A stretch of 51,419 bases of DNA from a virus (IMGVR_UViG_3300012943_000010:1-51419); one strand, 5' to 3'. Shown: positions 124-47,288, counted from the stretch's first letter. Program-made: numbers and translations. Notes: generated by a model not told the origin, from the letters alone.

Positions 124-975
124 TCCCTTCCGGTCGAGAGCAACCGAGAGCATCTGGAGGAACCCGTCTTTCATCACGTACCACTTATAAGCTCGACGAA
201 GGAGAGACCGGCCGTAAGGGTTCCCCATCTTTCCAGCCGCGTCGAAAGCGTAGTGGATACACTTCTCAGTCGGTATCCTGATGGAAAGGTAAGAATAGGT
301 ATTCGCGCTCCGGATCGGGAAAGGCATATCGCCGAACCGAGCGAAAGGATCGTTCGAAGAACCCTTAGAACCCCCGGAAAAGCCGAAAAGAGTCGATACC
401 CCATAAGCGAGGTTGGCCGGGTTATAGTTCCGCTGGTATTGAAGGATACCGTCAGGCGTCAGCTCTCCAGTCCTTTCAGTCTCGAAAAGAAGGGAGCCCG
501 GTGGAAGGGTGACGAGCTTTTTCACAACGAACCCGAGTTCGTCATCGTTACCCCAGACCTTTTCCTGCACCATAAAACCAGCCCACGAAGCGCCGAGCAG
601 CTCCTTCATAGCGTTGGTAAAACCGCCAGCGATACTCTCTAAAGCCCGATTAACCCAGTCCTCGATTTCCTTATTAGGGTGCTCATATCGACCGATACGA
701 GCCGCGAGGCACGTCGTAAGGAAGTCGATACCCGAGCCGATCGTGTCGTCGGTATCCACCATCCGCTTAAACGTCTCGACCGAGACAGTCGAGGGATTCT
801 GAATGAACTTATAGAACTGGTTGAATAGCGCAGGAATAGGCGTTCCGCGCTGTTGGGCAAGGTCGTCCCACGACTTAATTTCGGCGTGTCTGGCATACAA
901 CATCTCGTCGAGTTCGGACTCCGGAACCTCTGCGGTCGGCTCGGCGTAGCCGTTGTTATTCGTGGTCGTCAACAT
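1..975 (-). CDS. Portal protein (DUF935/Mu gp29-like), N-terminal part; continues across the origin to 50574 (565 aa total)
   Basis: Not in the ORF track because there is no stop in the window. Manual translation from ATG 975: MLTTTNNNGYAEP...GFMVQEKVW...GNPYGRSLLRRAYKWYVMK; in frame with the 50574-51197 ORF. Confidence 0.9.
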   Translation of the reverse strand, partial: MLTTTNNNGYAEPTAEVPESELDEMLYARHAEIKSWDDLAQQRGTPIPALFNQFYKFIQNPSTVSVETFKRMVDTDDTIGSGIDFLTTCLAARIGRYEHPNKEIEDWVNRALESIAGGFTNAMKELLGASWAGFMVQEKVWGNDDELGFVVKKLVTLPPGSLLFETERTGELTPDGILQYQRNYNPANLAYGVSTLFGFSGGSKGSSNDPFARFGDMPFPIRSANTYSYLSIRIPTEKCIHYAFDAAGKMGNPYGRSLLRRAYKWYVMKDGFLQMLSVALDRKGTPLTIVYADPNTTVGNPAQNVPNAKGKNIGERADQAAARAF

Positions 976-1525
976 TCTCCAAACTCCTTAGGTACTGCTG
1001 GATTGTGGGTAAAACTCGATCTTTCGCACTCAAATTTGGACGAGTATGTACGCCGAAGTTCTCCACAATTTCGGGAGAGTCCCAGGCCACGCCGCCGTCA
1101 AAAGCAGGTTCGTAAAAACTCGTGCAATTGTAGTGGACGATGGAATGTCGGGAAAGAACCAAGAACCCGTGCGCGCATCCTGGCGGGGAGTAAAGAGACT
1201 CCCCCCTCTCCCAGTTAAGCCGGAGAGCGAGCGATCTAAGGAAGGTCGGAGAGTCGGGCCGGAGGTCAACGATCACGTCGAGAACTTCCCCGTAGAGACA
1301 GGTCACGAGCTTCCCTTGAGGGTTCTCCGCTTGCAGGTGCATACCCCGAAGGACTCCGTGATCCGAGAAGGACTGATTTTGCTGCACAAACTTAGCGCCT
1401 ATCGCTTCGTCGATCCAGCCCTCCCGGTAAAGCTCCGAGAAGTTCCCCCGAGAGTCCGAGTGGACCTTTCGAAGTCCGATAAAAGCTCCCTTAATTGCAT
1501 CGACTGGTTCGAACTCAAAGGACAT
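956..1525 (-). CDS. rmlC: dTDP-4-dehydrorhamnose 3,5-epimerase
   Basis: DSRGNFSE, QQNQSFS..GVLRGMHLQ, QGKLV, DLRPDSPTF, AHGF motifs. Confidence 0.95.
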   Translation of the reverse strand: MSFEFEPVDAIKGAFIGLRKVHSDSRGNFSELYREGWIDEAIGAKFVQQNQSFSDHGVLRGMHLQAENPQGKLVTCLYGEVLDVIVDLRPDSPTFLRSLALRLNWERGESLYSPPGCAHGFLVLSRHSIVHYNCTSFYEPAFDGGVAWDSPEIVENFGVHTRPNLSAKDRVLPTIQQYLRSLENVDDHE

Positions 1526-2546
1526 TGAAACCTACCTCCTCGGCGTACCACCGCACGGTATCGCTTAATTTTTGGACAAAATTCTGTGGATTAGGTGACC
1601 AACCTAAAGCCCTGATAACCGAGTTGTCGATAGCGTATCGAAGGTCATCCGTGGGCCTAGCGAGGACATTATGTTCCACGTGAAACGGTCCCTCGGTAAG
1701 CCCGAGGTTCAACATGACATCGTGGACAGCCTTAACGAACTGATAATTTGTCAGCTCCTTCTCTCCCCCTATGCAGTATCTAAGCCCGTTCTCTCCCCGA
1801 AGGAATACCGTCTCGATCGCTTCGCAATGATCCTCCACGAAAAGCCAGTCGCGCATCTGAGCACCGCTTCCGAAAAGGATCGCTGGCTTCCGAGCTAGGA
1901 AGCTTCGGAAGGTCTGGGGGAGGAGCTTTTCGTGGTGCTGGTGAGGGCCGAAGTTATTCGAGCAGTTCGTTACCCGGACTTGGGTTCCGTAAGTCTCGAA
2001 GTAAGCCAGAGCGATCAGGTCGCTCGAAGCCTTGGAAGCTGCGTAGGGAGACCGGGGACGTATCGGGCTCTCCTCGAAAAAGGGCTCGTCTAAGAATCCT
2101 AGCTCTCCGAATACCTCGTCCGTGCTGACGTGGATAAAGGGACGGTTCGGAGTTCCCCCGTGGAGCTGGCGCCATTCCTCCAGGAGGTTCCAGGTTCCCA
2201 TGATGTTTGTGGTCATGAAGTCCTTAGGGCCCGCTATCGAACGGCAGACGTGAGACTCCGCGGCGAAGTGAAAGATAACCTCCGGGTGGTGGTGCTGCAG
2301 CACTCGGGCAACGACAGCCTGATCCCTGATGTCGACCTTCTCGAAGAACACCCGAGCCGAGCAGTCGTTCGCGCCGATATAGGACAGAACTCCGGTCGAG
2401 TCCGATGCGTAAGTCTCGGCGTCCATGATAAGGATCGTGTCTCTCGGGTATTTACGAAGCCAGTATTTTACGAAGTTCGTGCCGATAAAACCGAAGCCGC
2501 CAGTCACCGCTATTTTTCTCATATCGTATTCCGATTTGTGATTCAT
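1515..2546 (-). CDS. rmlB: dTDP-glucose 4,6-dehydratase
   Basis: VTGGFGFIG, HFAAESHV, STDEVFG, YAASK, CSNNFGPHQHHEKLLP, RDWLFVEDH. Confidence 0.95.
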   Translation of the reverse strand: MNHKSEYDMRKIAVTGGFGFIGTNFVKYWLRKYPRDTILIMDAETYASDSTGVLSYIGANDCSARVFFEKVDIRDQAVVARVLQHHHPEVIFHFAAESHVCRSIAGPKDFMTTNIMGTWNLLEEWRQLHGGTPNRPFIHVSTDEVFGELGFLDEPFFEESPIRPRSPYAASKASSDLIALAYFETYGTQVRVTNCSNNFGPHQHHEKLLPQTFRSFLARKPAILFGSGAQMRDWLFVEDHCEAIETVFLRGENGLRYCIGGEKELTNYQFVKAVHDVMLNLGLTEGPFHVEHNVLARPTDDLRYAIDNSVIRALGWSPNPQNFVQKLSDTVRWYAEEVGFNVL

Positions 2547-3991
2547 GGTTGCCTCATAAGATCATATTCCTCGCGAAGTTGCGACGGCAAAGACTCGATA
2601 ATTTCCGCTTGGCGACCAGGAGGAAAGAGCTTAAAGACTGCGTAACCGGCGGCATCCGATGCGTGGGTTCGGTCTCCATCTCCACCATCGTCGAGCTTAC
2701 CTCGGCCCGAAGACGTGACCGACTTCCAGCCGACCATCTTCACGTCACCGTCGAAATAAGTGCAGCGAGCAGGATCATAGGTCTGTCTGATTTCGCCCAT
2801 CGCGTTGCAGAAACGAGAGTTCATGTTCTCGACTCGGGTTCGGACTCTCGGGTTCGCTCGACTCTCCTCCTCATCGAGCTGGTGAAAGTCGACCGTAAAC
2901 CGAGCGCCTGCGTCTGCTAGAGTCGCTGCGATCTGATCGTAGTCGGTAACGCCTGCGTTCGAGGTCGTTCCGATACCGCCCGACACGTCGCCGTAGATCC
3001 GATAAAAGAAGTCCGGATACGACTGGAGAAGGTAAAGAGTCATGGCAACGCTCGACATCTCTCGCCCCGAAAGTTCTCCGAACCAATGAATGTGATCGTA
3101 CCAATATTCCCCATTCGGCCCGAAGGTATTCGGCCCACGTTGTCCGACCATCCAGACCAGCGGAGCAGGAGCAAAGTTAAAGTCACAGCCGATAATAAGG
3201 TCCATATCGCGATCCGGAAACGAAGCTCCCCACGGCGCGCGGCCCTGTCGATTCTTATCCGAAGCAGCGTAATAAGCTTTTCCGCCGAAGACGTTGATGT
3301 GTTTTGCTTCGAGTTCTTGCAGCGCCATCAGAGGCGAATAGGAAGCGGCCATCGTGTTGTAGTAGTTGAGGTCGATAATGCCCAGCTCGACCGATGCCAT
3401 CGTCGGAACGTGCATGGATCCATAGATCCGAGAGGCGTTTTGCCCGAGAACGAAGCGCTTATAAGACCAGTCCTCTCCGTTGGTCGTGGTCGTGATCAGG
3501 CCCTTAATATAGCCTTTCGTTTCACGCATACGCGAAATAACAACGTCATGGGTTGCCTGGGAAGTATCGCGAGTCTCGTCGAGCCAGTACCAACTGATTT
3601 CGATACCACGGAGCGCATCCGGATCGGAGAGCGTCCTGGTAAAGATCAGGGTGCAACGGTTGGTCCTTCGATTAAAGATCGAAACGGTGTTCTTATAGCT
3701 TTTTAAAGCCCGTTTTTGACCCCATGATTTCGGCGGAATGCAGTCCACAACGTAGTCGAGGTCGTACTCCTCCAGCCAAGAAAAGAAGGCTCGGAGAACA
3801 ACCTGGGAGAGCTGGTCATAGGTGTTTGCGCCTATTAAACCCGTCATCTGCGGGTGCTCAGTGATGTGATGGATCGAGAAGTGGGAACCGGTGTAGGTCT
3901 TACCGACAGCAACGCCGCCGTACATCGCGAAGTGTTGGAAGGGGTTATATATCGCTGCGTACTGCCAAGGAGCGATGCTTAAATCAGGCAT
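2543..3991 (-). CDS. terL: Terminase large subunit
   Basis: Walker A GGVAVGKT, Walker B WYWLDE, TTT coupling motif, RNase-H-like GCDFN and C-terminal HASDAAGY. Confidence 0.92.
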   Translation of the reverse strand: MPDLSIAPWQYAAIYNPFQHFAMYGGVAVGKTYTGSHFSIHHITEHPQMTGLIGANTYDQLSQVVLRAFFSWLEEYDLDYVVDCIPPKSWGQKRALKSYKNTVSIFNRRTNRCTLIFTRTLSDPDALRGIEISWYWLDETRDTSQATHDVVISRMRETKGYIKGLITTTTNGEDWSYKRFVLGQNASRIYGSMHVPTMASVELGIIDLNYYNTMAASYSPLMALQELEAKHINVFGGKAYYAASDKNRQGRAPWGASFPDRDMDLIIGCDFNFAPAPLVWMVGQRGPNTFGPNGEYWYDHIHWFGELSGREMSSVAMTLYLLQSYPDFFYRIYGDVSGGIGTTSNAGVTDYDQIAATLADAGARFTVDFHQLDEEESRANPRVRTRVENMNSRFCNAMGEIRQTYDPARCTYFDGDVKMVGWKSVTSSGRGKLDDGGDGDRTHASDAAGYAVFKLFPPGRQAEIIESLPSQLREEYDLMRQP

Positions 3992-6288: not shown

Positions 6289-7401
6289 TTAAATTACGTC
6301 CCACTTCTCAGCGACAGGGCCTATCGGACACTTCTCGACGAGACAGTTAATGATGTCCTGTCGGCGTTCGTTGACCTTCGTAAGGGTAAGGGTATTTTTG
6401 ATGAAGTCGCGACTCTGGCGCCACTGGTATCCGCCATCGAGTTCTCCTCGAAGGAAGCTGTCGAGCTTAACTTCGAAGTCCTTCGAGTCGGTGTAATTGA
6501 TGATACCGGGGCGGCGCCACTCCTCGAAATCAGGAGCCAGCGTAACCGCACCTGCATGGGTTGCTTCGATCCAGGCGATATTAGACTTCGAGCGGTTGAA
6601 GGGACAGTCGTCGAGGGGAACTATCATCAGGGCCGGTCTGGTCTTTTCAAGGAACCCTAGATAGTCGATAGGATCGATCGTCTCCGTAAGGATCACGTTC
6701 GAGTCTTTAATACCTGGCACTTCGTCCAGCATCTCAATGGTGAGCCAGAACGGTTCCCCGATAAAGTTGTAAGTCCAATCCAGGTGCTTCCCTATCGCCT
6801 CCTTAAGGGCCGGCGTTACGCAGAGGAGGTCTTTATCGTGAGTCCCGCTCCCACGCCAAGCGACGATCTTATTCTGGTGAGGAGGTTTAGCGGCCTCGGT
6901 CAACGGGTTCATCAGGTCCATATCGTAGGCGTTCGGAACCACCACGACCTTCGAAGGATCGAGCAGGAGACCGGGCTCGCTCTGCGCTCCCTTCGCGATA
7001 CGCCTGATGATCGACCTTACCTGCTCCTGGAGGAAAGGAGTCGACACCGAGACGATATCCGCCTTCGCCAGCATTGTGCTCATGTTGTTCTGTATGGCCG
7101 GGTTGTTGTAAATACGGCTCGCCTTATTAAAGAGCGGAACCCCGTAAAGCCAGTCGTCATAATCGATCCAGACCTGCTTACGATTTGCCTTTGCCATGCT
7201 TATCATCTTGACGTGGTTCTCTAGGGCCGGTCTCTGGAGGAATACCGCGTCCACGCCCTTGAGAGACGCCCAGTTCATCGGCTGTCCGACTTGCACCGAT
7301 AAGTTGCCCCAGCTCCGGACGAGAGACTGGAGCGGGCCCACTCCCCGATAAAGGCTCGTCGCATCGGTCGGCTCGGGCATCTGACACATTAGATTTATCA
7401 T
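6289..7401 (-). CDS. Glycosyltransferase, GT-B fold (GT4-like)
   Basis: YRG..P, FLQRP, IDYDDW, ADIVSVSTPFL, VVVPNA, IVAWRGSGTHDKDL, PLDDCPFNRSKSNIAWIEA. Confidence 0.8.
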   Translation of the reverse strand: MINLMCQMPEPTDATSLYRGVGPLQSLVRSWGNLSVQVGQPMNWASLKGVDAVFLQRPALENHVKMISMAKANRKQVWIDYDDWLYGVPLFNKASRIYNNPAIQNNMSTMLAKADIVSVSTPFLQEQVRSIIRRIAKGAQSEPGLLLDPSKVVVVPNAYDMDLMNPLTEAAKPPHQNKIVAWRGSGTHDKDLLCVTPALKEAIGKHLDWTYNFIGEPFWLTIEMLDEVPGIKDSNVILTETIDPIDYLGFLEKTRPALMIVPLDDCPFNRSKSNIAWIEATHAGAVTLAPDFEEWRRPGIINYTDSKDFEVKLDSFLRGELDGGYQWRQSRDFIKNTLTLTKVNERRQDIINCLVEKCPIGPVAEKWDVI

Positions 7402-7708
7402 CGGTCGGAACTCCACACAGGCTATTGAGGAAAGCAGTCACGACAGCCCTTTGAAGCTGTCCATTATCGGCAAAAACTTCACAGGCTCCCGCGATCTTTA
7501 TCGCCCAAACGCAGCTATCGAGCCAACGGATTTGAGGCTCGAAGTCGAACGCAAGGGCTTCGAGCAGCACCGCGAGGTGAGCCCACTTTTTCGAAGGTTC
7601 GAAGTTATCGGGAAGTACGAGGAGTCCCTGGTAACGGGAGTCTAAGGCGCGCCTTAGGTCGGCGTCGATGGAAGTCGAGACGGATAACATAAGTCGGTCT
7701 CCTCGCAT
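7178..7708 (-). CDS. Hypothetical protein (3' part overlaps the glycosyltransferase)
   Basis: ORF follows a sigma70-like promoter; the last ~70 codons overlap the next gene and may not be functional. Confidence 0.45.
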   Translation of the reverse strand: MRGDRLMLSVSTSIDADLRRALDSRYQGLLVLPDNFEPSKKWAHLAVLLEALAFDFEPQIRWLDSCVWAIKIAGACEVFADNGQLQRAVVTAFLNSLCGVPTDDKSNVSDARADRCDEPLSGSGPAPVSRPELGQLIGASRTADELGVSQGRGRGIPPETGPREPRQDDKHGKGKS

Positions 7709-10547: not shown

Positions 10548-11135
10548 TTAATCGACGTAAAGCCTAGCCAGTATGGTCTTTACTATCTTGGCCATATCCT
10601 CTCGACTCTCGTTCTCCAAGAGTTCGGCTTCCTTAAATACCTTCTGAATATTATCGAGTTTTACAGCCCTAGACCTACACCACTCGGCTGTCTGATCGTC
10701 GGCTCTCTCGATGTGTCGGCGCTTTAAGGTCTGGCTGGAAGCCTTTACTATAAGGATATCTGTCGGTGCTACCATTCGACACTGGCTTAGGAAAGGTGTA
10801 CCGAAAAGTCGGTCTCCTTCGAAGACGATAGCGTAGTCCTTAAGACCGAGTTCTTTCGACCGCGAGAGGAAAGATATAGCGTCTTTCGTGACCTGGAGGG
10901 AGAGCCGATCGGTTCCGGCGAAGGTCTCCGAGCTTGCGTAAATACCGAGGATCACGACACGCTTATTCGGAACGCAGTGGCCACGAAGGAGACCGTACTC
11001 GAACCGGTGGAACGTGCTGTCGCGAGAGAACTCGTCGATAACTTTCCGAACTACTGTCGTCTTACCTGTCGCGGGCTCTCCACCAATCGCAACGATCCGG
11101 CGCCATAATGCGAAGAGTCCGGGGGAAGGTATCAC
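10548..11135 (-). CDS. P-loop nucleotide kinase of the type associated with hydroxymethyl-pyrimidine DNA hypermodification
   Basis: GGEPATGKT, LGIY..ETFAGTDRLS, IVFEGDRLF; GTGA-coupled to the aGPT-Pplase-like gene. Confidence 0.75.
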   Translation of the reverse strand: MIPSPGLFALWRRIVAIGGEPATGKTTVVRKVIDEFSRDSTFHRFEYGLLRGHCVPNKRVVILGIYASSETFAGTDRLSLQVTKDAISFLSRSKELGLKDYAIVFEGDRLFGTPFLSQCRMVAPTDILIVKASSQTLKRRHIERADDQTAEWCRSRAVKLDNIQKVFKEAELLENESREDMAKIVKTILARLYVD

Positions 11136-12100
11136 CTCAGTTCCGACAGCATTTTTTTTCTGTATGTCTCTTTTCGATAGTTCCATAGAACGGTCCAATT
11201 AACGCCCTCCGATACTGCTTCCTGCATGGTTTTAAGTTCTTCGGCCTGAGCGTCAAGGTAAAAGCCAACCCATCTCTTTCCGAAGCGGTATTTTTCATAG
11301 GCGCACAGCGTTGTCTTTAGACTCCAGACTGTGTTCCTCCTGTCGATGGACTTCATTCGGGAGACCAGCATCTCGTACTGTCCCTGGAGGTATCCGGTCT
11401 CCTGGAGCGTAAGCCGGCGTCCTGCAGCACAGCCTAAATCGGGCCGACCGATCGCCAGCGCCAGCCCTCCGCGAACCCCAACGGCCTCGCGCATATCCAG
11501 GGAAGGTGGATCCATCGGGAAGCCAGTAAGCTCGGAGACCGCTTCGAGGTAAGGGAACATCGACAGCCGACCGAACTGATATACCCGGCTCATATCCGCC
11601 GCGGCTCTCTCGTAGGTCGTCCTCGGGTTCGGCGTCAGGAAAGACTGGAATAGGTGCTCCTGCTTAAGCCGACCGACGTTCCCCCGATAGCTCTCCACAA
11701 CGTCCGGAAAGTGGTCTCTCGCTCTCATCCAGCGCCGGTCTGAGTGGAATAGGAGCCGCTGCTTATTCGAGTCCCACCACCGCCGCAGGCGCTCCTGGTC
11801 GATAAGCTCGAAGTCGGGGAACTCGTGAAGGATATAGAACGCTGTCGGAGCCGACAGAGTGCAAGCGTAGAGGAAAGCGAGCCAATACCTCTGCTCGGTA
11901 TTCAGCTCGAAGCGTTCGGCCACGTAGCGCAGCATTCCGAACGCAGGAGACACGTCTCCGGCTTCCAGGCTCTCGGAGTGATACTGCTCGAAGGTCGCCG
12001 GTATTTCAGACGGCAGCGGTGGCCGTGAACATACCAGAGTCTTTCCGTATCTTTTCGAGGACGATCGGGCATCCTCCGAGGGTGTAAGGTTGTTGCTCAA
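11132..12100 (-). CDS. aGPT-Pplase / amino-acid:DNA transferase-like protein
   Basis: GDVSP, EQRYWLAFLY, FHSDRRW, FGRLSMFPYLE, TTLCAYEK, GFYLD; adjacent to the kinase. Confidence 0.75.
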   Translation of the reverse strand: MSNNLTPSEDARSSSKRYGKTLVCSRPPLPSEIPATFEQYHSESLEAGDVSPAFGMLRYVAERFELNTEQRYWLAFLYACTLSAPTAFYILHEFPDFELIDQERLRRWWDSNKQRLLFHSDRRWMRARDHFPDVVESYRGNVGRLKQEHLFQSFLTPNPRTTYERAAADMSRVYQFGRLSMFPYLEAVSELTGFPMDPPSLDMREAVGVRGGLALAIGRPDLGCAAGRRLTLQETGYLQGQYEMLVSRMKSIDRRNTVWSLKTTLCAYEKYRFGKRWVGFYLDAQAEELKTMQEAVSEGVNWTVLWNYRKETYRKKMLSELR

Positions 12101-12728
12101 AATACTCTCCTGGAACTTCCGAACGCTTTAAAATGTCACGAGTCGATGCCCAAAACGTAACGCCATCTCCTTCCAAAGTGGAATACCAGAGCGGCCTTTT
12201 CGGGTTCCGAACCCACCACAGACCAGACCGAGAGGAGAGAACGAAGCCTGCGAAAGAGAACCTTTGCCGGATAAACCACGAGCGAAAGGCTTCCGGGCCG
12301 CGTTCGATGAACTCTCTTAGCACGACCTCACCGTCGTTGTCGGTAACGTAGCGCCGACCGAACTCCTCCTCCCAGTCCACTCTAAAGCGTTGAGAGACCA
12401 CGCCATCGAAGGCGAGAGCTATCGTTTCCCCCTGCTCGACCGAGACGATCGGCTGGTTATTCGAGGGCTGTTTGTGGTCTCCGGAAGTCGAATAATGATT
12501 GTTAAAAATCAGAGCGCACGGGGGCGACTCCTGGAAAGAAGTCGAGCCGAGCAGACAGACAAGATCGTCGATCCTAGAGCTTTTTATCGTCGAGACCTTT
12601 CCGTCTCTTAGATAACTCATGCCGAAGGAATGGAGACCGCGAGACGCAGAGTTCCGCATCAGGCGAGCGATGATATCGAAGTGCCACTGCTTAGGATTTT
12701 TCGCTCGGTACGCGATCACTCCTGACAT
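12006..12728 (-). CDS. Class-II glutamine amidotransferase-like (Ntn) protein with atypical N-terminus
   Basis: GGAGGT RBS before MSGVIAY; RGLHSFG, YSTSG, NNQPI, DGVV, TDNDGE, RNPKRPLW, ASTRDIL. Confidence 0.7.
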   Translation of the reverse strand: MSGVIAYRAKNPKQWHFDIIARLMRNSASRGLHSFGMSYLRDGKVSTIKSSRIDDLVCLLGSTSFQESPPCALIFNNHYSTSGDHKQPSNNQPIVSVEQGETIALAFDGVVSQRFRVDWEEEFGRRYVTDNDGEVVLREFIERGPEAFRSWFIRQRFSFAGFVLSSRSGLWWVRNPKRPLWYSTLEGDGVTFWASTRDILKRSEVPGEYFEQQPYTLGGCPIVLEKIRKDSGMFTATAAV

Positions 12729-12821
12729 TTTTTGCGCTACCTCCAACTCGACAAAGGATTTTTCCGACCACGTAGAAAGCCCACAAAACAAGCATTAAAT
12801 CGGGAATAAGGATCAGATACT

Positions 12822-13670
12822 TCACTTTCGAAACTCCTCGGAGAGCAGCATAGGTATCGTGCTTTTCCAATTAATGCTGTGATGAAGCCGGGAGAACTTG
12901 GTCGACATCATCTTTACCGTGACCGAGGAGGGCTGGTACATCACGGAATAAAAGCTTTTAACGTAGGTTCCCGAGTCGAGGTACATCTCGGTCATACCGC
13001 CAGCGTTTTGCTGAGTCGATACTTGAGTCAGGGAGACCTGATTTACCGTGAAAAGCAGGAGCCCTTTACTCGCGAGATGAGTATAGGTATTCACGTCCTC
13101 GTTGATGCGGCCGACGAAGCGGAAGGGACGATCCGTGCTGCAAATAAAGGAGTTCATACACTTGCGCTTAAGCTTTATCTGCTTCGAAAAAGCCGACTGC
13201 TCTCCCCCGATAAAGTCTCCCCCTTGCGCTATCGCGATGCTGTCCGCGCTCGAAGCCTTATAGAACTTAAGCAGGGCTTCGAAGATCGGATCGAGGTTCC
13301 GAGCCGCCTTAGGAACGTAGGCGAATCGGTCGTTGAAGCGATAATAAAAGCAGGTGTAGTCGTCGTCGAGCTGCATAAAATACTTTATTCCAAGCTCTTT
13401 CGCGACATCGAAGCTCGCGTTGCGGGCGTAGATAATCGCTCTCATATCCTGGAAGTTATCGCCCTGGTCGAACGTCTTCGCGACCGCACTCTTATCGAAA
13501 ATGCGAACCTCATCGCCGTACCGCTCGATATACTCTCCCCGAGTTTTATCGAGGTCATCGACCAGGAGGAAAATGCGGCCGGTGTATCCGAGTCGGCGCA
13601 GACTGGAGTAAGTCTTCACTCGATCCGGACGACCGTTTGTAAGGATAAATACCGCGAAGTCTTCATGCAT
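12822..13670 (-). CDS. TAGT/GREB1-like glycosyltransferase (GT-A; DNA-base glycosylation family)
   Basis: FILTNGRP, ARN, MQLDDDY, MNSF, GRINEDV, TQQNAGGMTEMY. Confidence 0.8.
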   Translation of the reverse strand: MHEDFAVFILTNGRPDRVKTYSSLRRLGYTGRIFLLVDDLDKTRGEYIERYGDEVRIFDKSAVAKTFDQGDNFQDMRAIIYARNASFDVAKELGIKYFMQLDDDYTCFYYRFNDRFAYVPKAARNLDPIFEALLKFYKASSADSIAIAQGGDFIGGEQSAFSKQIKLKRKCMNSFICSTDRPFRFVGRINEDVNTYTHLASKGLLLFTVNQVSLTQVSTQQNAGGMTEMYLDSGTYVKSFYSVMYQPSSVTVKMMSTKFSRLHHSINWKSTIPMLLSEEFRK

Positions 13671-14469
13671 TCCTGTACGCCTCGGCGATCTCGTCCGCTA
13701 GGACTACGAAGCCCTTCTCGATGGCTTTATTAAAGTCGATGATAACCATCGCGCTATCCTCCATCAGGAGTTGAACTTCCTTCGGAGCATGGGCGTAGAA
13801 CTCGGCGAGCTTTTCGTAATTGAAAACGATGTGACGACACGCTGCGAAGCGGAGCAGGTTCTTATCGTTCTCCGAAATTTCGGCCTTGTTTATCGCAGCC
13901 GTGAGCTGAGCGTACTTCGTCGTGTCGTACATCTCGCTATACTCGGGCTTTTCCCCCTTCGGAGTATAGATCGGGGAGACCACCTTCCGGGTGTACTCGA
14001 CTCCTTCGCTATCGTCCTCCTCCTCGGGCTCCGTTGAGAGAACTGGAGGATTTAAGAAGGTGTTGAGACTTTCGAGCTTAAAGCCCGTCATCTCTAAGTT
14101 CGTTCCCTCTCCTATCGTTTCGAGAGTCGTAACGATCTGCTGCAACTTCCCGACGTTCATCTGAGACATTCGAGCAAGCTGGTTATCCGCTACGATATCC
14201 GATAATTCCTGCGCTTCGTTCTCGTAGTCCTGGTAGTCGATAGGGACTTCGGTAAACCCAGCCGCGAACGCTGCAGCAAGCGCACCGTGTCCCTTCGTGA
14301 TAAACCCGGATCGAGTCGAGACCGTTATCGGGCGGCGCCATCCCTGGAAGTTTAGTATCTGCACGAATAGGGCGACCTGATCCGGCCCGTGTTCGTTCGG
14401 GTTCGCTGGATGGGGAACCAGTGTACTCGGATCGACAACGGCCTTGTGAGCGCAGTGAATCGGTATCAT
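13663..14469 (-). CDS. ParB/Srx N-terminal domain fused to a helical domain
   Basis: HPANPNEH, GWRRPITVS, KGHG, IVADN; C-terminal RHIVFNYEKLAEFYAHA..LMEDSAMVIIDF. Confidence 0.8.
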   Translation of the reverse strand: MIPIHCAHKAVVDPSTLVPHPANPNEHGPDQVALFVQILNFQGWRRPITVSTRSGFITKGHGALAAAFAAGFTEVPIDYQDYENEAQELSDIVADNQLARMSQMNVGKLQQIVTTLETIGEGTNLEMTGFKLESLNTFLNPPVLSTEPEEEDDSEGVEYTRKVVSPIYTPKGEKPEYSEMYDTTKYAQLTAAINKAEISENDKNLLRFAACRHIVFNYEKLAEFYAHAPKEVQLLMEDSAMVIIDFNKAIEKGFVVLADEIAEAYRNA

Positions 14470-16905: not shown

Positions 16906-16962
16906 TTTTACTTTCCTTTTTCTTCGGGTATAAGCACACTAGTCTGTCTTAAGGAGTACGAA

Positions 16963-18236: not shown

Positions 18237-18260
18237 TGCTCACCTCTAAAAGCGGAGCCC

Positions 18261-19740: not shown

Positions 19741-19844
19741 ACTATTCCCCATACAGGCATCAAAAGTTGTAGTAGCAAGACTCCCAGACCGAACGCTTGC
19801 TCCGGAGTAAGCCTCTCGATAAATCCAGCGACTCCAGACATCAT
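19686..19844 (-). CDS. Small single-pass membrane protein (52 aa; not in the ORF track)
   Basis: Manual translation MMSGVAGFIERLTPEQAFGLGVLLLQLLMPVWGIVWLVQNRRKRSTNSRNTL; ATGA-coupled. Confidence 0.5.
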   Translation of the reverse strand: MMSGVAGFIERLTPEQAFGLGVLLLQLLMPVWGIVWLVQNRRKRSTNSRNTL

Positions 19845-33778: not shown

Positions 33779-35136
33779 GACGATGGAATCCTTAAGACAG
33801 TGCCCGGCTCGATATAATTTATCGACGCAAGCTCGGGGTTAAGTATGTCCAACTCCTGCACACGGTTCGGAGAGAGACCGTTCAGAAAAGCCGCTTCTCT
33901 AAGGCTCATCACCCGCTTAACTGTGAAGGAAACGATACGCGCATTCGAGGACGCAGCGCCTTTTTCCAGCACGTCCTGAGTCAGTATTACGGTCTGTCTC
34001 ATCTCTAAAATCGTGTCGTAGAGTTCGAGAGCAGCGCCGTTTCCTTCGATTGCTTTTATGATCTGAGTGGCTTGGTCTCGAAGGGCCTGCACCTCCTTCG
34101 TCAGCTCGGTTATCGCGACAGCGATCAGAGTGGTCGAGGAAAGATCCGCGACAGGAATACCGTTGAAAGGATCGCTTATCGACCGCACGACAACGAAGTT
34201 CTCGTCGGCTGTGATCGCTGTCTGAGAGCCGATGGTGGTTCCGGTCGGTCTCCCCGTGACAGGATCGATACTCCCGAGAGTCGGAACCCGACCGTCAGAG
34301 GCTCCCCCGGCTGCGGAGGTAGCGATACCCGAGCCGCCGATGTTCTGGGGAAGCAGGGCCGGTATATCCGTGCTCGTCCCGTTCGAGTTAAAGGTCACAT
34401 TCATCCGGGTAAGGGTTCGAGCCGAGTCTCGTTTGTAAAGTGCCAGGTACGAGTTCACGAGGTTCTTAATACCCCGTGCCAGGAGGATCGCTCCCTCCAC
34501 TCGGGCGACAGCCCTATCGATGGCCTTAAAGACTTCGAGGGCTTTCGTCAGGCTCGACTTAACCGAACTGTCTCGGAGGGCGTTGATACTCCCCACGGTA
34601 AAGTTGTGCTCGGTAAAGACGATCCGGAGAGCCACGGCCTTGCGCTGGTCGTGCTGGTGGATATGGGAGACCTGCTCGACTACGCAATCGAGTTCCCCTC
34701 GGACTGGATGGATAAGCTTCCCTGGAGTCGGCTTATTAAACTCGTTAAGGAGCCGCTGGTATCCTTCCATATAGCGCGGCCCGTGGATCAGAGCATCGAC
34801 CTCGAAGGTCTCCCCCATCCGGCCTAAGTCGTCCGTGGTCTGTCCGTCTCGGTACGGGAAGGAATACTTGACCTTCCTTCGGCCCGAGAAGTCCGCGAAC
34901 CGAGAGACAGCTCCGTCCCACACCGTCTTTTCGTCGGGCTGCGGAGCGCCGTTGACAGCCGAGAAGGAGTTCGTCTTCGAGAGGTTAAAAACGTGGAACT
35001 TGACCCCGTTGAACGAAGCCTCTCGGATATCCCACTCTTTCGGATCGCGGCCACCGATAAGGCTATTAAAGCTCCCGAGAGCGCCCTGGGTGATCCGCGA
35101 AAAGTCCGCTAAGTCCGATATGTCAAACTTTGGCAT
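33775..35136 (-). CDS. Mu gp43-like DNA circularization/tail protein
   Basis: EASFNGVKF, GRR...Y.FPYRDG...DDLGR, PG.LIHP..G; LysM-like LNP..I.PG..L.IP end. Confidence 0.88.
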   Translation of the reverse strand: MPKFDISDLADFSRITQGALGSFNSLIGGRDPKEWDIREASFNGVKFHVFNLSKTNSFSAVNGAPQPDEKTVWDGAVSRFADFSGRRKVKYSFPYRDGQTTDDLGRMGETFEVDALIHGPRYMEGYQRLLNEFNKPTPGKLIHPVRGELDCVVEQVSHIHQHDQRKAVALRIVFTEHNFTVGSINALRDSSVKSSLTKALEVFKAIDRAVARVEGAILLARGIKNLVNSYLALYKRDSARTLTRMNVTFNSNGTSTDIPALLPQNIGGSGIATSAAGGASDGRVPTLGSIDPVTGRPTGTTIGSQTAITADENFVVVRSISDPFNGIPVADLSSTTLIAVAITELTKEVQALRDQATQIIKAIEGNGAALELYDTILEMRQTVILTQDVLEKGAASSNARIVSFTVKRVMSLREAAFLNGLSPNRVQELDILNPELASINYIEPGTVLRIPSS

Positions 35137-37049
35137 TAGTTCGATGCTCCCTGACTTGGTGATTTAGTCCGAGCCTTTAGGTTCGGCTCCTTCGTCTCGA
35201 TCACAATCCTAGTGGCGTTTCCTCCGAACGGGTTATTCGTAGGTTGGACGACGCTCGTTGTCTCTTTAACGGTCTTCTCTCGGATCGTTTCTTTATTTTC
35301 CTGGATCTTATCAGTCGGGACGAGTTTTTTTGCAGGAACTCCATCGACCTTCCCACCGTATTTGCGGTTATATTCTTTTTGGTCTAGTTCTTTCGACATA
35401 TCTCCGCCGATCATTTTATCCATGACGTACCCGATCCGGTCTCCCAGGTTCATCTCCATGCCGCCATAGTTCTGCTTTTCAGTGTTCTCCAGGGCTCCAT
35501 TGACGTAGGGCTCGATGATTTTACCGATACCGACTCCGACAAGAGCAGCAAGCCCGACCATACCTGCATTTTTGGCCATAGCAGCGGCTCCCCCTGCCGC
35601 TCCAGCAGCTCCTCCTGCGGCTCCGAGAGCATCACCGATACCTCCCCCACCGATTTCGGAAGCATTCGTGACGTAGACAGGGATGGTCTTTTCCCCAAGC
35701 ACAGCTTCGGCTCCGGCTGTCTTAGCAGCGGTAGTGGCCAGCCCTCCGATACCCATACCTTTCCCGACTCCCTTAAGCCCTTTACCAGCGAGAAGAGCGG
35801 CTAGGAGACCACCACCAGCAACGACAGCCGCAGAGCCAGCGGTCGATTCTGAGGTCGCTGAGAGAGCGTCTGTCGCGCCCTGGGTGATAGCGGCCAATGG
35901 AGTGGCTATAAGCTTTTTAAATTGGTTGAAGTTGGCCTTAAAAGCTTCGCTAAGGCCCTTTGTGTCACGGTATTGATCCTCTCGGGTGCCCTGGATACCC
36001 TTACCGGCTTGGAGAGCCTTACGAACTTCATCTAGGCTCTCTCGGAGCTTAACCAGACCTTCGGCCGCATCTTCGTCAATACCGGCTGTCGTAAGGCCCA
36101 TTCTAGGATCACCACCAGTCCTGGCGCTGACGCTATCGATAAATGAGGCAAGCTTATCGAGGTCGATACCCTTATCGCTGAAAAGATTTCCACCGCCCTG
36201 AGCATCGAGAGCCATGCGTTTAATCGGAGACATCGCAGCGTATTGCTCGAAATATTTCGTAGCATTAGGCCCTCCAACAGCGCCGACGGTCGCAAGGTTT
36301 GCCAGTCCTTCCGATCCGATCTTAGCTCGTAGGTCTTTCGGCATAGCGGTGAAAATCTTTTTCATCGCATCGATAGATTCGGTTGGTGTTTGGCCGGTGG
36401 AGACGAACACCTTTCGAAGAGACTCAGATAGGGCTCCAAGCTGCGCCTGATCATTTACATTCCCACCGCGAGCCTGAGTCACGTCGGCAAGACCTTTTGC
36501 GATCTGTCCTTCTTTACCGGATTCTTGAGAGATAGATGCCAGCATTCCAGCTTCGGCTGAATATGCCAGTATGTTCTCTTTTCCACGAACCCTTGTTTTT
36601 GAAAGACCGTCAAGCGTCCTGGATGCTACATCAGAACTCATTCCGATATCGCCAAGGCCCGACGTTATGAAGGACTGGAAAGAGGAGAACTGATCTTTTG
36701 CAATACCAAACGTAGTACCAAGCTTTCGGACTTTATCCGAAAGGGTAACGGTCTCTGTGATAGAGCCCTTAAATTGGTTCGAGAGTTTGAGGGAGTCGGA
36801 CACTGCGTTGATCGCAACGAGTGATTTGAAGTCGCCGCGAAGTTGATCCGCGACGCGACGAGAGAGGCTTCGGAGAGAACCGAAGAACGTATCGACCTTT
36901 TTCGTGTTGTCCTTAAGCCCGTCCTCGACACCTTTCCCGGTATCCTCGAACGTCTCTTGGACTTCCTTAGCGGCCTTTTTTACCTTCTCCAGCTCGTCGA
37001 TAATGGACTGTAAAGACGACCGGACTGATACCTGTACTGGATCGCTCAT
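35136..37049 (-). CDS. Tape measure protein
   Basis: 637 aa, helical Ala/Gly-rich, PVYVTN motif; between chaperone and gp43-like gene. Confidence 0.85.
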   Translation of the reverse strand: MSDPVQVSVRSSLQSIIDELEKVKKAAKEVQETFEDTGKGVEDGLKDNTKKVDTFFGSLRSLSRRVADQLRGDFKSLVAINAVSDSLKLSNQFKGSITETVTLSDKVRKLGTTFGIAKDQFSSFQSFITSGLGDIGMSSDVASRTLDGLSKTRVRGKENILAYSAEAGMLASISQESGKEGQIAKGLADVTQARGGNVNDQAQLGALSESLRKVFVSTGQTPTESIDAMKKIFTAMPKDLRAKIGSEGLANLATVGAVGGPNATKYFEQYAAMSPIKRMALDAQGGGNLFSDKGIDLDKLASFIDSVSARTGGDPRMGLTTAGIDEDAAEGLVKLRESLDEVRKALQAGKGIQGTREDQYRDTKGLSEAFKANFNQFKKLIATPLAAITQGATDALSATSESTAGSAAVVAGGGLLAALLAGKGLKGVGKGMGIGGLATTAAKTAGAEAVLGEKTIPVYVTNASEIGGGGIGDALGAAGGAAGAAGGAAAMAKNAGMVGLAALVGVGIGKIIEPYVNGALENTEKQNYGGMEMNLGDRIGYVMDKMIGGDMSKELDQKEYNRKYGGKVDGVPAKKLVPTDKIQENKETIREKTVKETTSVVQPTNNPFGGNATRIVIETKEPNLKARTKSPSQGASN

Positions 37050-37131
37050 GTGTGGGCTCCCTTGACCGATTGCCATTGAAGCTTACCGCTTACCACAGCA
37101 TGGGCAACCCACCAAACCACTTGGCCCGATG

Positions 37132-41850: not shown

Positions 41851-42945
41851 TTAGACTACCGTAGCAGTCAGAACGTCGAAGCCACGGTCGAGTTTCACGC
41901 CGCCGTACACACCACCAACGAGGTCGAGGTACGGGTTCGAGGGACCGCCCTTAGTACCGGCTGCGGTATTATCCTCGACAACGAGGAACTTACCGAAGCC
42001 TGGGTTGTCGATCGAACCTGACGCAAGGTTGACCGTCTGAACGAACTCACCGATCTTATCGTTGCCAGGGAGAGAGCACTCGAAAAAGATCTTTCCGTCC
42101 GGGATGAAATACTGAGCGTCGGTAACGGTGATGTGACCGTTAGCGTCGATGCTCTCGTCCATCCAAGTTCCGTTGTAAACCTCGACATTCGGGAGACCGG
42201 GAATAAGGAACTGGAGCACCTTATTTACGTCGTATCCACCGATTGAAGGGTTCGCGCCGTAGCTGGTGAGATAAGCGCGAGTGTTCGCGTTATCCAGGAG
42301 CCAACGGGCTGTGTTCGGGTTCATCACGATGCCAGTGATCTTGTACTTACGGAACGCATCGAGTCCGCCCATGATCCAGTATCGAAGGTCGATAATGGGG
42401 TTCGCGGAGTTGTTTGCGTTGATACCGTCAGACGACCAGACAGCTCCGACAGGGACAGTCCGATTTTTCAACGGAGTTCCGAAAGAGATGGCTTTACCCA
42501 TCCAGGAGAACCCACCGTTAAAGATCGACTGCCAACGCTGATACTCGATACGAGTCTCGATACGTCGGTTAAGACGGTCGATATCGAGGTCGATGTACTG
42601 CTGCACACCGCGCACGTTGCGGCCATTCGAGCCGAGTTCACGCAGATAAAGAATCCGCGTTTCGTCGTAGTGAATGACCTCCTTATAGAACGGAGGAGAG
42701 TATTCCTGCGCTCGGGTTCCGAAGGACTGGATGTACTTCGGGTTCGTACCGGGCAAGTGCTCGTTGGTCATACCGCCAGTGGCTTCGATGACCTCAGTGC
42801 GTACTCGCGAGACAGGGAGAGCGACCGAGGGAAGGTATTTCGAGCCGATATAAGTCGTCGGATCGTTGACCACTTCCTTGATCAATTTTTGAATAACTTC
42901 GGTGTATTCGTTGGTGAAAAACAAGTTCATCATTTGGGACGCCAA
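41851..42945 (-). CDS. Major capsid protein (lambda E-like, HK97 fold)
   Basis: PPFYKE, L..RI..RIEY.R.Q....G, W.......PI.D, MN..T, FIPDGK. Confidence 0.9.
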   Translation of the reverse strand: MASQMMNLFFTNEYTEVIQKLIKEVVNDPTTYIGSKYLPSVALPVSRVRTEVIEATGGMTNEHLPGTNPKYIQSFGTRAQEYSPPFYKEVIHYDETRILYLRELGSNGRNVRGVQQYIDLDIDRLNRRIETRIEYQRWQSIFNGGFSWMGKAISFGTPLKNRTVPVGAVWSSDGINANNSANPIIDLRYWIMGGLDAFRKYKITGIVMNPNTARWLLDNANTRAYLTSYGANPSIGGYDVNKVLQFLIPGLPNVEVYNGTWMDESIDANGHITVTDAQYFIPDGKIFFECSLPGNDKIGEFVQTVNLASGSIDNPGFGKFLVVEDNTAAGTKGGPSNPYLDLVGGVYGGVKLDRGFDVLTATVV

Positions 42946-42996: not shown

Positions 42997-43407
42997 TTAA
43001 AACTTCAGTGTTGTAACGCCCGTCGCGTCGATGATGGACTTTCCGCCGAGGTCTGTTTTTCCGTTCGCGTCGAGCCCTAGGAGCTTCGCCTCGAACACAG
43101 TACAACCGCCGAAGATACCCACCGCCATGCAGGAGCCTGTCGCGCCTGATCCATCGAAGTCCTCGATAGGATGCTGCTCGAATAGGATGCAAGACGCAGT
43201 GTTGAGACCACTCGAAGCGCCATCGTTATAGCGTTCGAAAAGGCCGTCAGTCGTGTTGCGCGCAAGCACCGTTCCGGCTGGATAACCAGAAGCGTTGTAG
43301 CGCAGACGGACCGGATTAAGGATCGCTGACGCACGGTTCGTCGCGATGATGATCGGGTTGTCTTTCGAAAAAATGTTGCCGTTAAAAGCTGCTCCAATTG
43401 CACCCAT
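42997..43407 (-). CDS. Head decoration protein
   Basis: AGTVLAR...DG....Y......G...A..IL; immediately upstream of the capsid gene. Confidence 0.8.
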   Translation of the reverse strand: MGAIGAAFNGNIFSKDNPIIIATNRASAILNPVRLRYNASGYPAGTVLARNTTDGLFERYNDGASSGLNTASCILFEQHPIEDFDGSGATGSCMAVGIFGGCTVFEAKLLGLDANGKTDLGGKSIIDATGVTTLKF

Positions 43408-45810: not shown

Positions 45811-45846
45811 TGTATTCTTCTTTGTAATACGAGTTGAGGGGTCATT

Positions 45847-46368
45847 ATGCTTAAGCTCCATCTGGGTTGCGGAAAGATTATCTTACCGACGTGGAAGAAC
45901 ATGGACATCGAACCAGGGCCGATGAGAATCGTATTCGACCTTCGCTCACCTATACCAGAGGAAAGCGACACGGTTGACTACATTTATCACGAGCACTTCA
46001 TCGAACACCTTACACGAGACGAAGGAATAGCTCTCTTTAAGGAGTGCTTTCGAGTCTTGAAAAAAGGGGGAGTCATGCGGTTCTCGACTCCCGACCTGCA
46101 CATGCTCTGCATCTGGTATCAGCAAGGAAAAATAAATCAATGGCCGGGAACCTGGGAGCCGAAGTCGAACGCTCAGTTCTTCAACGAAGCCATGCGACTG
46201 TGGGGGCATCAGTTCCTTTACGATACCGAAGAACTCGGTATGATACTCGGTGAGCTTGGGTTCTCTCACCTCCTTATGGAGGAGTATCACAATAGCGAAC
46301 ACGATGCTTTGCGCGAAATCGAAGCTCGACCTTATCAACGCGATATCATCATGGAGTGTACGAAATGA
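45847..46368 (+). CDS. Class I SAM-dependent methyltransferase (type frequent in glycan loci)
   Basis: KLHLGCG, NMD, IYHEHFIEHL, ECFRVLKKGG....TPDL, GH..LYD. Confidence 0.85.
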   Translation: MLKLHLGCGKIILPTWKNMDIEPGPMRIVFDLRSPIPEESDTVDYIYHEHFIEHLTRDEGIALFKECFRVLKKGGVMRFSTPDLHMLCIWYQQGKINQWPGTWEPKSNAQFFNEAMRLWGHQFLYDTEELGMILGELGFSHLLMEEYHNSEHDALREIEARPYQRDIIMECTK

Positions 46369-47288
46369 AGCATCTGATTTTGGGAGCAGGGAACTTAGGT
46401 ATCGACATTAAGAATGAGGTGATCCGACAGAGCGGAGAGAGAAGGAATGTTGACCTTGTGTCCCTCTCCGAAGGGCTCGACGTGAGAGACCTCAACGCGC
46501 TTCGAGCAACGCTAGCCCGAGACGATTACGATGTGATTTGGTATTGCGTCGGACAGGGCTCGGTGCAGCAAGCTAAGGACGATCCGGAGAGCGCGAGACT
46601 GATCTACGGCAATGCTCCGAAGCTGGTGGCTGCGTCGGCGCGAGTGGACGCGAAGGTTATCATCTTCTCGACCGACTACGTTGCAGACGAGAACGATCCA
46701 GGGAACCCGAACGCTGTCACTCAGGAGTTCCTTTCGGAATACGCTTCGATTAGAGCGAAAGCGGAGCAGTATATCCTCCACGCGAACCGACCGAACACAG
46801 CTATCGTTCGAGTCGGCTCTCTCTACGGAACACACAAGCCCGATAAAACCTTTCCAGGTCGGATACTGGCTTCCTTCGGACAGGAGTCGGATACTCGGAT
46901 CAGGCTCCCTCGGAACCTAGTCACACCAACGCCTACGCTGTGGCTTGCGTCTGTCCTGGTCTCTAATTTGGAGAGGATGTTCAATGCAGAGGAGACGGTT
47001 ATTCATCACTGCTCTCCACTCGGCAACGTATCCGTGTGGGACTGGGCGACCTTTGTTTTAAAGGGTATTCGCGAGCCGAGCGCATTCAGTCATGACGAGT
47101 TTTTCGACGAGGAGAGACCAAAGATTTCCGCTCTCGGTTCGACCTTCTTAGAGACGAACTGGAACTGGTTCGAGCTATGGCAGACCTATTTTAAGCCTGA
47201 ATGGTTTACGCTACCTGATCCGCAGCCGAGCGACGAGGCTCCGACAGAGCCCACTGGTGCCGAAGCACTTGCCGATACGAAGGCATAG
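46365..47288 (+). CDS. rmlD: dTDP-4-dehydrorhamnose reductase-like SDR
   Basis: LILGAGNLG, LDVRD, FSTDYV, Y...R..AE, IVR...LYG, TPT; ATGA-coupled to the methyltransferase. Confidence 0.75.
   Translation: MKHLILGAGNLGIDIKNEVIRQSGERRNVDLVSLSEGLDVRDLNALRATLARDDYDVIWYCVGQGSVQQAKDDPESARLIYGNAPKLVAASARVDAKVIIFSTDYVADENDPGNPNAVTQEFLSEYASIRAKAEQYILHANRPNTAIVRVGSLYGTHKPDKTFPGRILASFGQESDTRIRLPRNLVTPTPTLWLASVLVSNLERMFNAEETVIHHCSPLGNVSVWDWATFVLKGIREPSAFSHDEFFDEERPKISALGSTFLETNWNWFELWQTYFKPEWFTLPDPQPSDEAPTEPTGAEALADTKA

Follow-up and report, generated by a model that had tools for sequence, protein, structure and literature searches.

That viruses can glycosylate with rare sugars of their own making is established for giant viruses, and glycans on the virion are established for mycobacteriophages. 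We describe here a set of dTDP-sugar and glycosyltransferase (GT) genes in IMGVR_UViG_3300012943_000010, a complete virus record of 51,419 bp with a 123-bp repeat at both ends according to IMG/VR, which was analysed at its full length (hereafter the window) and is the genome of a contractile-tailed phage. The nearest described system is the rhamnose (Rha) and viosamine (Vio) fibre pathway of Mimivirus. According to passages of PMC4691112, the Mimivirus fibres carry Rha and N-acetyl-3-O-methyl-viosamine made by the virus's own enzymes, with R141 as 4,6-dehydratase, L780 as epimerase/reductase, L136 as aminotransferase and L142 as N-acetyltransferase. The branch-point logic and the enzyme types are shared with the window, and so are the expected sugars, Rha and an N-acylated, O-methylated viosamine; however, the pathway in those passages uses UDP-sugars and is encoded in one nine-gene cluster of a 1.2-Mb eukaryotic virus, whereas the window phage, known from its genes alone, has separate enzymes of the bacterial dTDP type, an AntD-like acyltransferase and dispersed genes within 51 kb. 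A second parallel is offered by mycobacteriophages, whose capsid and tail-tube subunits are glycosylated according to a citing passage in PMC12619734, the likeness lying in soluble phage GTs with a methyltransferase, which there act in the cytoplasm on capsid and tail-tube subunits. The window phage differs from these in having its own nucleoside diphosphate (NDP)-sugar pathway and Mu-like tail and portal genes; the mycobacteriophages of Freeman et al. 2023 reportedly use host sugar donors and infect Actinobacteria. In the Bacillus anthrose operon (AntC/AntD) and the Pseudomonas syringae vio genes, an AntD-like acyltransferase is likewise paired with a DegT-family aminotransferase and rhamnose genes, but the window has no AntA-type hydratase, and a PhyH-like oxygenase is its sole acyl-tailoring candidate. 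The anthrose and vio loci are chromosomal and serve the glycosylation of BclA (Bacillus anthracis) or flagellin (Pseudomonas syringae). Finally, the 5mYOX/ThyS DNA clusters (Pyle et al.; O'Toole et al.) resemble the window, going by passages of these papers, in that GT-A, GT-B, sugar tailoring, O-methyltransferase and ParB-like genes are found together in metagenomic phages, but the window is without a detectable base hydroxylase, and its module persists in complete hydroxylase-less genomes. Among publications linking phages with viosamine, judged by titles and abstract openings, no phage viosamine pathway was described, and no literature was found on bacteriophage dTDP-4-dehydrorhamnose together with capsid glycosylation.

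At the gene level it is well supported that the phage encodes a dTDP-sugar pathway, which would start from host-made dTDP-glucose since the phage has no RmlA (PF00483 was found in 0/15 records searched). The putative dTDP-glucose 4,6-dehydratase RmlB (1515-2546, minus strand) matched PF16363 with 219 bits and TIGR01181 with 330.4 bits, and the motifs of an extended short-chain dehydrogenase/reductase (SDR) are intact (GGFGFIG at 16, STDEV at 141 and YAASK at 168). The predicted dTDP-4-dehydrorhamnose 3,5-epimerase RmlC (956-1525, minus strand) matched PF00908 with 171.8 bits and passed the equivalog cut-off of TIGR01221 (160.2 versus 155.75 bits). The protein encoded at 46356-47288 on the plus strand, with a likely start at the Met at 46365, is by its profile match (PF04321 RmlD_sub_bind, 80.6 bits versus a cut-off of 27), its YGTHK motif and its best PDB match (1vl0 rfbD, 8e-11) a divergent RmlD-like NDP-4-keto-6-deoxyhexose 4-ketoreductase, of which the product stereochemistry is not fixed by sequence. 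RmlB would convert dTDP-glucose to dTDP-4-keto-6-deoxyglucose, and RmlC together with the RmlD-like enzyme would take this intermediate to dTDP-L-rhamnose or a close 6-deoxyhexose.

The second branch would begin with C4 amination of the RmlB intermediate to dTDP-viosamine by a DegT-family pyridoxal phosphate-dependent sugar aminotransferase (24495-25673, minus strand; PF01041, 164.9 bits; SFHATK lysine motif), the true start of which is probably the Met at 25595, because its relatives align only from residue 33. Its NCBIfam matches to DesI (86 bits, the best dTDP-type model) and LegC (95 bits) were both far under the cut-offs, and its PDB matches at ~1e-21 span C3 and C4 enzymes and are thus non-discriminating, so that the sole pointer to a C4 aminotransferase yielding dTDP-viosamine is the pairing with the gene of a putative AntD-like left-handed beta-helix N-acyltransferase. 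The latter (23625-24209, plus strand) matched Hexapep with 31 bits, aligned to PDB 3vbi-3vbp with an E-value of 1e-27 and 100 bits over residues 11-184 of 194, and gave a weak match of 24.5 bits to the NeuD/PglB/VioB model. We take 3vbi-3vbp to be AntD, the N-acyltransferase of the anthrose pathway; the depositor title reads 'galactoside O-acetyltransferase'. The AntD-like enzyme would N-acylate viosamine, and its product would then carry an acyl group.

Two further enzymes may tailor this acyl group or the sugar. The first is a small class-I S-adenosylmethionine (SAM) methyltransferase (MT; 45847-46368, plus strand; Methyltransf_11/23/25; PDB 8k76 at 1.8e-5), which is a candidate sugar O-methyltransferase, and the second a PhyH-family Fe/2-oxoglutarate oxygenase (16747-17829, plus strand, likely start near 16960; PF05721, 66.6 bits; HQD motif). 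We place PhyH as a candidate in sugar or acyl tailoring because the solved structures closest to it are those of enzymes acting on small molecules (MysH, SnoK and PhyH) and because it adjoins genes of this kind elsewhere, namely AntD-like genes directly in L200, L202 and L210, GT-B genes in L098 and L105, and an SDR and a GT-A gene in G005 (G005 19147-19986). By analogy it could hydroxylate the acyl group; hydroxyacyl groups are found on anthrose and on Pseudomonas viosamine. PhyH was present in 6/40 records carrying the GT-B gene. In the earlier note, made from the window alone, the three rhamnose genes, the aminotransferase, the acyltransferase, the SAM methyltransferase and the PhyH gene had all been named, and profile, Pfam or PDB matches bear each of them out, at the proposed positions or no more than a few codons away; its view of RmlB as the branch point between rhamnose (via RmlC/D) and viosamine (via aminotransferase and acyltransferase), with only RmlA left to the host, also stands with these enzyme calls.

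Assembly of an oligosaccharide would fall to three soluble GTs. The GT-B (GT4-like) enzyme (6289-7416, minus strand) is predicted to be soluble and matched phrog_7162 'glycosyltransferase' and no Pfam family; its AlphaFold2 (AF2) model (pLDDT 91.5, pTM 0.90) has the two-Rossmann GT-B fold, with GlgM, MshA, BshA and PimA as top Foldseek matches (E 1e-10 to 1e-9, TM ~0.65), a result which separates no acceptor class (protein, small molecule or DNA). The GT-B family has at least 376 relatives in IMG/VR. The GT-A (GT2-like) enzyme (21946-22698, minus strand), also predicted to be soluble, has neither a Pfam nor a PHROG match, and its assignment is a lead rather than a formal family match, drawn from ESM Atlas features (0.98), the Atlas model (TM 0.70-0.73 to PF00535 clusters) and a DPD motif at residue 99. 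The third is a GT9-like (heptosyltransferase-family) GT-B enzyme (25610-26614, minus strand), which matched PF01075 with 42.9 bits (cut-off 22) over profile positions 103-200 of 247 only, and for which every NCBIfam heptosyltransferase equivalog stayed far under its cut-off. The three GTs proposed earlier are thus all real, likewise to within a few codons of the proposed positions, the GT9 by Pfam and the GT4-like one by PHROG and fold, with the GT2-like one holding as a lead without Pfam support. The GT9-like gene directly follows the fibre and RCC1 genes, and in one case, L141, a homolog of it lies directly upstream of the GT-B homolog. As a separate observation, the GT-B homolog of G001 covers only window residues 6-277, in a 728-aa open frame (L042:11664-13850), which could represent a fusion or a different C-terminal domain.

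The sugar genes do not form one operon, as had been noted before, but are dispersed over three insertion sites, mostly in or beside the late genes, and are closely wired into these. Successive overlaps of 4, 11 and 20 nt join the TerL gene (2543-3991), rmlB, rmlC and the portal gene; the fibre, RCC1, GT9-like and DegT genes (the last with its start at 25595) are spaced by 12-14 nt; and the MT and RmlD-like genes, which lie on the opposite strand and are flanked by the Mu-F and amidase genes, share 13 nt, the RmlD-like gene being translationally coupled to the methyltransferase gene. A consensus scan found terminator-like hairpins on the minus strand at 22706-22729 (8 pairs, 6 of them G-C, then T7), after g22813, and at 50516-50545 (12 pairs), just after the portal gene. 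The first closes the string fibre-RCC1-GT9-DegT-g24206-g22813, and the second, the only strong hairpin of its string, closes TerL-rmlB-rmlC-portal; within both late strings, strong hairpins occur at these two places only. Two small proteins in the first string were also inspected. That encoded by g22813 (22813-23271, minus strand) combines a signal-like N-terminus and a charged tail with hydrophobic segments rich in Gly/Ala and looks holin-like, with homologs in 6/13 relatives and in the unrelated phage G014, and that encoded by g24206 (24206-24520, minus strand) has an N-terminal transmembrane (TM) segment followed by a stretch of coiled-coil appearance on visual inspection (spanin-like). The possibilities that g22813 encodes an FdtA-type sugar isomerase or a GtrA-like flippase were dropped, as it is holin-like and also present in the DegT-less G006.

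The phage belongs to an abundant uncultivated family of contractile-tailed phages of ~50 kb. Its major capsid protein (MCP) had 511 homologs among metagenome-derived proteins, no match in 50,697 GenBank phage records and a single match in a set of 185,579 species represented by one genome each, which lay on a 12-kb contig of a metagenome-assembled genome (MAG); a near-identity DNA search of the GenBank phages with the window returned nothing, and TerL matched them at 23-27% identity only. A scan of IMG/VR with the single MCP sequence found nothing, while an alignment of homologs recovered 37 loci, from which 13 long records (G001-G013, MCP identity 58-78%, with G008/G009 near-identical) were taken for comparison; six of these have terminal repeats or nearly so, at a completeness of 91% or more. 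Presence and absence were scored by tblastn of the 73 window proteins against the 13 records. The GT-B gene was found in 13/13 relatives and the GT2-like gene in 8/13; four records without the latter carry a canonical PF00535 GT2, giving a GT-A-type enzyme in 12/13, the record without any being G013, which is only 73% complete. MT and ParB-like genes were each present in 8/13, DegT (one partial), rmlC and RmlD-like genes each in 7/13, rmlB in 5/13 (always between TerL and portal), AntD-like genes in 5/13 and PhyH in 2/13, with ADDT, kinase-like and GATase genes in 1/13 each (G002), TAGT in 1/13 (weak, G012), and the GT9-like and RCC1 genes in 0/13.

The three insertion sites are syntenic across these relatives. 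In the window, the first, between TerL and portal, holds rmlB and rmlC; the second, between portal and Mu-F, holds MT and the RmlD-like gene, and in other relatives 2-7 kb with GT2, hexapeptide, NUDIX or NlpC/P60 genes; and the third, after the fibre genes, holds DegT, the AntD-like gene, g22813 and GT-A, joined by MT in G003, G007 and G008/G009. Where relatives lack the window's set, these sites are occupied by other GT2, hexapeptide or SDR genes. The genes co-occur in a nested fashion: DegT accompanies the AntD-like gene in all 5 records that have the latter, all 7 with DegT also have MT and the GT2-like gene, and MT is present in 0/5 DegT-less records (the incomplete G013 left aside). MT lies beside the RmlD-like gene in four records and beside GT-A, DegT or the acyltransferase in four (G003, G007, G008 and G009), and thus changes site yet stays with the DegT set. 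The earlier note had considered that its proposal would fall if the genes were patchy in relatives with no co-occurrence; the three syntenic sites and the nested co-occurrence in 13 relatives count against that outcome. Because the relatives swap tailoring genes at the three sites and keep two GTs, the glycan would vary between relatives, with the attachment machinery constant.

Outside this family, the whole set recurs in G014 (L080/L161), a complete phage genome of 104 kb whose terminase differs and which lacks the family MCP. Within 19 kb it carries, in this sequence, GT-B, amidase, g22813, GT-A, AntD-like and DegT genes, genes for a 351-aa protein and a 1155-aa tail fibre, rmlC and rmlB; a Collar domain is present in the fibre, which also matches BclA_C and C1q weakly, below threshold, and Tet_JBP, ThyS and PhyH are absent from this phage. 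From its gene order, the whole kit travels together and flanks a fibre gene, and G014 gives, through its gene context, the strongest single hint of a role linked to the fibre and not to DNA. Genes for DnaJ, a histone-deacetylase-like protein and CobT/VWA with AAA_5 (CbbQ-like) proteins were also seen near the G014 kit. More widely, AntD-like genes were found at 66 IMG/VR loci, 61 of them outside the MCP family, and the neighbours within 10 kb of these 61 loci included rmlB-like SDRs (25), DegT (7), PhyH (3) and MT (3). Among the 50,697 GenBank phage records, rmlB-like genes occurred in 203, by name 89 Escherichia and 54 Synechococcus phages, which among the matches listed were mostly of 145-154 kb; AntD-like genes occurred in only two, both huge uncultured phages, and DegT had no match at 1e-15. 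The rarity claimed earlier for a self-supplied rare-sugar pathway therefore holds in part among sequenced phages, for the AntD-like and DegT genes but less so for rmlB-like genes.

We estimate a probability of roughly 0.45, somewhat short of even odds, that the glycan is placed on the virion or on another phage-made protein. The core GT-B, the GT-A and the GT9-like enzyme would act late in infection and build the oligosaccharide in the cytoplasm, using an acceptor supplied by the phage, with the GT9-like enzyme peculiar to this phage and GT-B part of the family core; by analogy with the Mimivirus fibrils and the mycobacteriophage capsid and tail-tube glycans, the acceptor would most likely be a virion protein, such as the tail fibre, the RCC1 protein or a head protein. 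The co-directional, tight packing of the sugar genes with TerL/portal and with the fibre genes provides the context for placing the glycan on the virion. Several observations weigh against it. Among the 73 predicted window proteins no Ser/Thr-rich stretch (at least 13 S/T in 30 residues) was found, and neither Ser/Thr-rich nor collagen-like acceptor stretches were found in these proteins or in the G014 fibre. GT-B sits in the early/middle region beside RusA, away from the structural genes, and its fold also matches a DNA enzyme, the T4 alpha-glucosyltransferase (Foldseek rank 19), while GT-A starts 8 nt past the terminator-like hairpin at 22706-22729, as the first gene beyond it. RmlB stays below the TIGR01181 equivalog cut-off (330.4 versus 365.1 bits), and the RmlD-like protein fails the RmlD equivalog TIGR01214 (70.4 versus 224 bits). 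The DegT set is confined to two clades of a tree of five concatenated structural proteins, and its co-occurrence thus goes back to few independent events. The window and 6/13 relatives also carry DNA-hypermodification genes, and in G003 the TET/JBP, ParB, MT and GT-A genes adjoin one another, DegT following at a distance of 3 kb.

These last two points lead to the possibility that the NDP-sugars feed GTs that decorate hydroxymethyl-pyrimidines in the phage DNA, with TAGT adding the first sugar and the other GTs extending it, and so shield the DNA from restriction or CRISPR, which we hold to be a serious rival though a rather improbable one. The DNA route had been brought up before only as a result that would count against virion glycosylation, and this does not do justice to the window, which itself holds a DNA-hypermodification cluster at 10548-15275 on the minus strand, with a P-loop kinase-like gene, ADDT/aGPT-Pplase (PF18724, 69 bits), a GATase-like gene, TAGT (PF20691, 116 bits) and two paralogous ParB-like genes. 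Tet_JBP is present in 6/13 relatives, the sugar island of G002 abuts a kinase-ADDT-GATase-TET-ParB cluster, and ParB-like genes accompany MT in 8/8 records. The literature gives further parallels: according to passages of bioRxiv 10.1101/2023.12.21.572611, phage GTs put mono- to trisaccharides (hexose, N-acetylhexosamine, heptose or Kdo) on 5-hydroxymethylcytosine, often require a partner sugar epimerase, and include DNA GT-Bs likened, as is the window's GT-B fold, to MshA/BshA; according to passages of PMC13229309, phage thymine dioxygenases may depend on a ParB-like activator, 5mYOX neighbourhoods include GTs (31%), ParBs (27%), terminases (19%), O-methyltransferases and sugar epimerases, and many phage 5mYOX escape the Pfam model, as its authors state.

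The membership of the cluster and the comparative data speak against modified DNA as the destination of these sugars. The window has TAGT but no recognised base-hydroxymethylating enzyme, being without Tet_JBP (PF12851) and ThyS (PF00303), and a hidden Markov model (HMM) built from the six family TETs found no further member in any of 14 genomes. Nor did the sugar/GT module depend on a hydroxylase across genomes: the complete G001 carries DegT, AntD-like, MT, RmlD-like, GT-A and GT-B genes, and the complete G004 both GTs, RmlD-like and rmlC genes, without Tet_JBP, ThyS or PhyH, and the complete G014 likewise keeps the sugar module without any of these three. In 26 other long GT-B records Tet_JBP and ThyS were both found in none, by a search method that as a positive control gave Tet_JBP in 6/14 records, and in the 25 GT-B records that are at least 90% complete, Tet_JBP was present in 6, PhyH in 5 and none of Tet_JBP, ThyS and PhyH in 14. 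No homologs of the family TET or ParB proteins lay within 10 kb of the 61 non-family AntD-like loci, and Tet_JBP was found in 2/37 of the non-family AntD-like records (one below the family cut-off; mostly fragments) and in 0/5 of those at least 90% complete. ADDT, kinase-like and TAGT genes are each present in 1/13 relatives, compared with sugar genes in 13/13. The passages drawn on from bioRxiv 10.1101/2023.12.21.572611 and PMC13229309 report no deoxy- or amino-sugar on DNA, and the main text of the former makes no mention of rhamnose, dTDP or aminotransferase. Together the comparative data lean against the DNA as destination and lower its standing without removing it. PhyH and Tet_JBP are mutually exclusive within the MCP family, and a replacement of TET/JBP by PhyH as base hydroxylase was considered for this reason; the gene neighbours of PhyH and its small-molecule relatives make this the less likely role. 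The more specific version, in which TAGT-capped hydroxymethyl bases derived from thymine or cytosine would be extended by GT-A, GT-B and the GT9-like enzyme with rhamnose and N-acyl-O-methyl-viosamine into a deoxy-amino-sugar glycan on DNA, with a hydroxylase of an unrecognised type, appears less likely still. In G002, Tet_JBP lies between the GATase-like and ParB-like genes, where the window has TAGT. An orphan gene next to the ParB pair, g15344 (15344-16216, minus strand; 290 aa), had 3 distant homologs among 1.84 billion representatives; it was considered as a hidden T-dioxygenase with a jelly roll and rejected, as AF2 models it from the single sequence as a helical protein whose N-terminus is winged-helix-like (weak, pLDDT 57) and it has no Pfam or PHROG match.

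Equally unlikely in our estimation is an action on the host envelope, in which the GTs would act on lipid-linked O-antigen, core or capsule intermediates of the host or on a host surface protein such as flagellin or pilin, for example to block adsorption by progeny or rival phages. The GT4, GT2 and GT9 types together with Rml, Vio and AntD-type enzymes are typical of lipopolysaccharide (LPS), capsule and flagellin glycan loci; the rmlB-like genes of cyanophages and phages of ~145-154 kb usually carry a cell-wall or LPS annotation; and in the window, as in G014, the sugar genes are interleaved with lysis-type genes (the amidase, the holin-like g22813 and the TM/coiled-coil g24206). However, a hydrophobicity scan of the 73 predicted window proteins revealed no transmembrane GT, flippase, polymerase or ligase, g22813 and g24206 being the only, small, TM proteins. 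The two core GTs diverge at the pace of structural genes (31-47% identity, with 47-64% for TerL), so that a phage-encoded acceptor fits better than a host-specific one, and a late, export-dependent surface change would have little time in a lytic cycle. Lysogenic conversion of the Gtr/Oac/Wzy type was not borne out, with no multi-TM GT and with the tyrosine integrase PF00589 in 0/15 records (serine integrases and transposases were not searched for), and it is unlikely because of this lack of a tyrosine integrase together with the single MCP match, which indicates that there are almost no prophage copies; action on lipid-linked intermediates or proteins of the host in the course of lytic growth is still a live reading, though an improbable one. 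Least probable is that the genes have no common product and are independent 'morons' at recombination hot spots that tweak host nucleotide-sugar pools: their locations (TerL/portal, portal/MuF and after the tail fibres) are indeed classic for morons and their content varies (rmlB 5/13, rmlC 7 and RmlD-like 7, the latter two only partly overlapping in presence), but AntD-like genes occur only with DegT and MT tracks the DegT set across sites (7/7), two GTs are family-wide, the whole set is compactly clustered in the unrelated G014, and PhyH adjoins AntD-like, GT-B or GT-A genes in six other lineages.

If the glycan is indeed placed on the virion, it would apparently make this the first small tailed phage with a self-supplied Rha/acyl-viosamine coat, which would bear on receptor binding, stability and recognition by immune or defence systems; if the sugars are placed on DNA, they would represent a new DNA chemistry. 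In either case the family combines two core GTs with dTDP-sugar tailoring genes that are shuffled at three sites of the structural operons. We propose the presence of a base hydroxylase as a rule that separates DNA-directed from non-DNA phage GT modules, and the gene set is small enough for reconstitution in E. coli.

The remaining gene content agrees with the assignment as a myophage made before, with tail genes for sheath, tube, DNA-circulation, gpP, baseplate-J and Mu-gp48 homologs. Nearly all window genes lie on the minus strand, and the portal gene spans the record ends (Portal_Mu matches at 975-1 and 51419-50574, both minus strand). The head genes encode a Mu-F-like head protein, an E-type MCP (41851-42945) and a D-type decoration protein (42997-43407), and a 646-aa protein (35136-37076) without significant family match is named as of tape-measure size by its size and position only. 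A 469-aa fibre-position protein (28005-29414) is encoded just ahead of the RCC1-repeat beta-propeller protein (26628-27992, minus strand; PF25390, 172 bits), which directly follows it. The Amidase_2 endolysin gene (47206-47931) and the 3′ end of the RmlD-like gene have 83 nt in common. No tRNA was identified in the window, and the window proteins scanned included no recognisable DNA polymerase, primase, helicase or integrase; genes of recombination type were those for a PDDEXK DUF3799 protein, phrog_3657 and RusA. Two short plus-strand blocks interrupt the otherwise one-directional genome, one with PhyH and an 89-aa open reading frame and the other at 48153-49709, and these are closed by strong terminator-like hairpins on the plus strand at 18254-18281 and 49718-49737, respectively.

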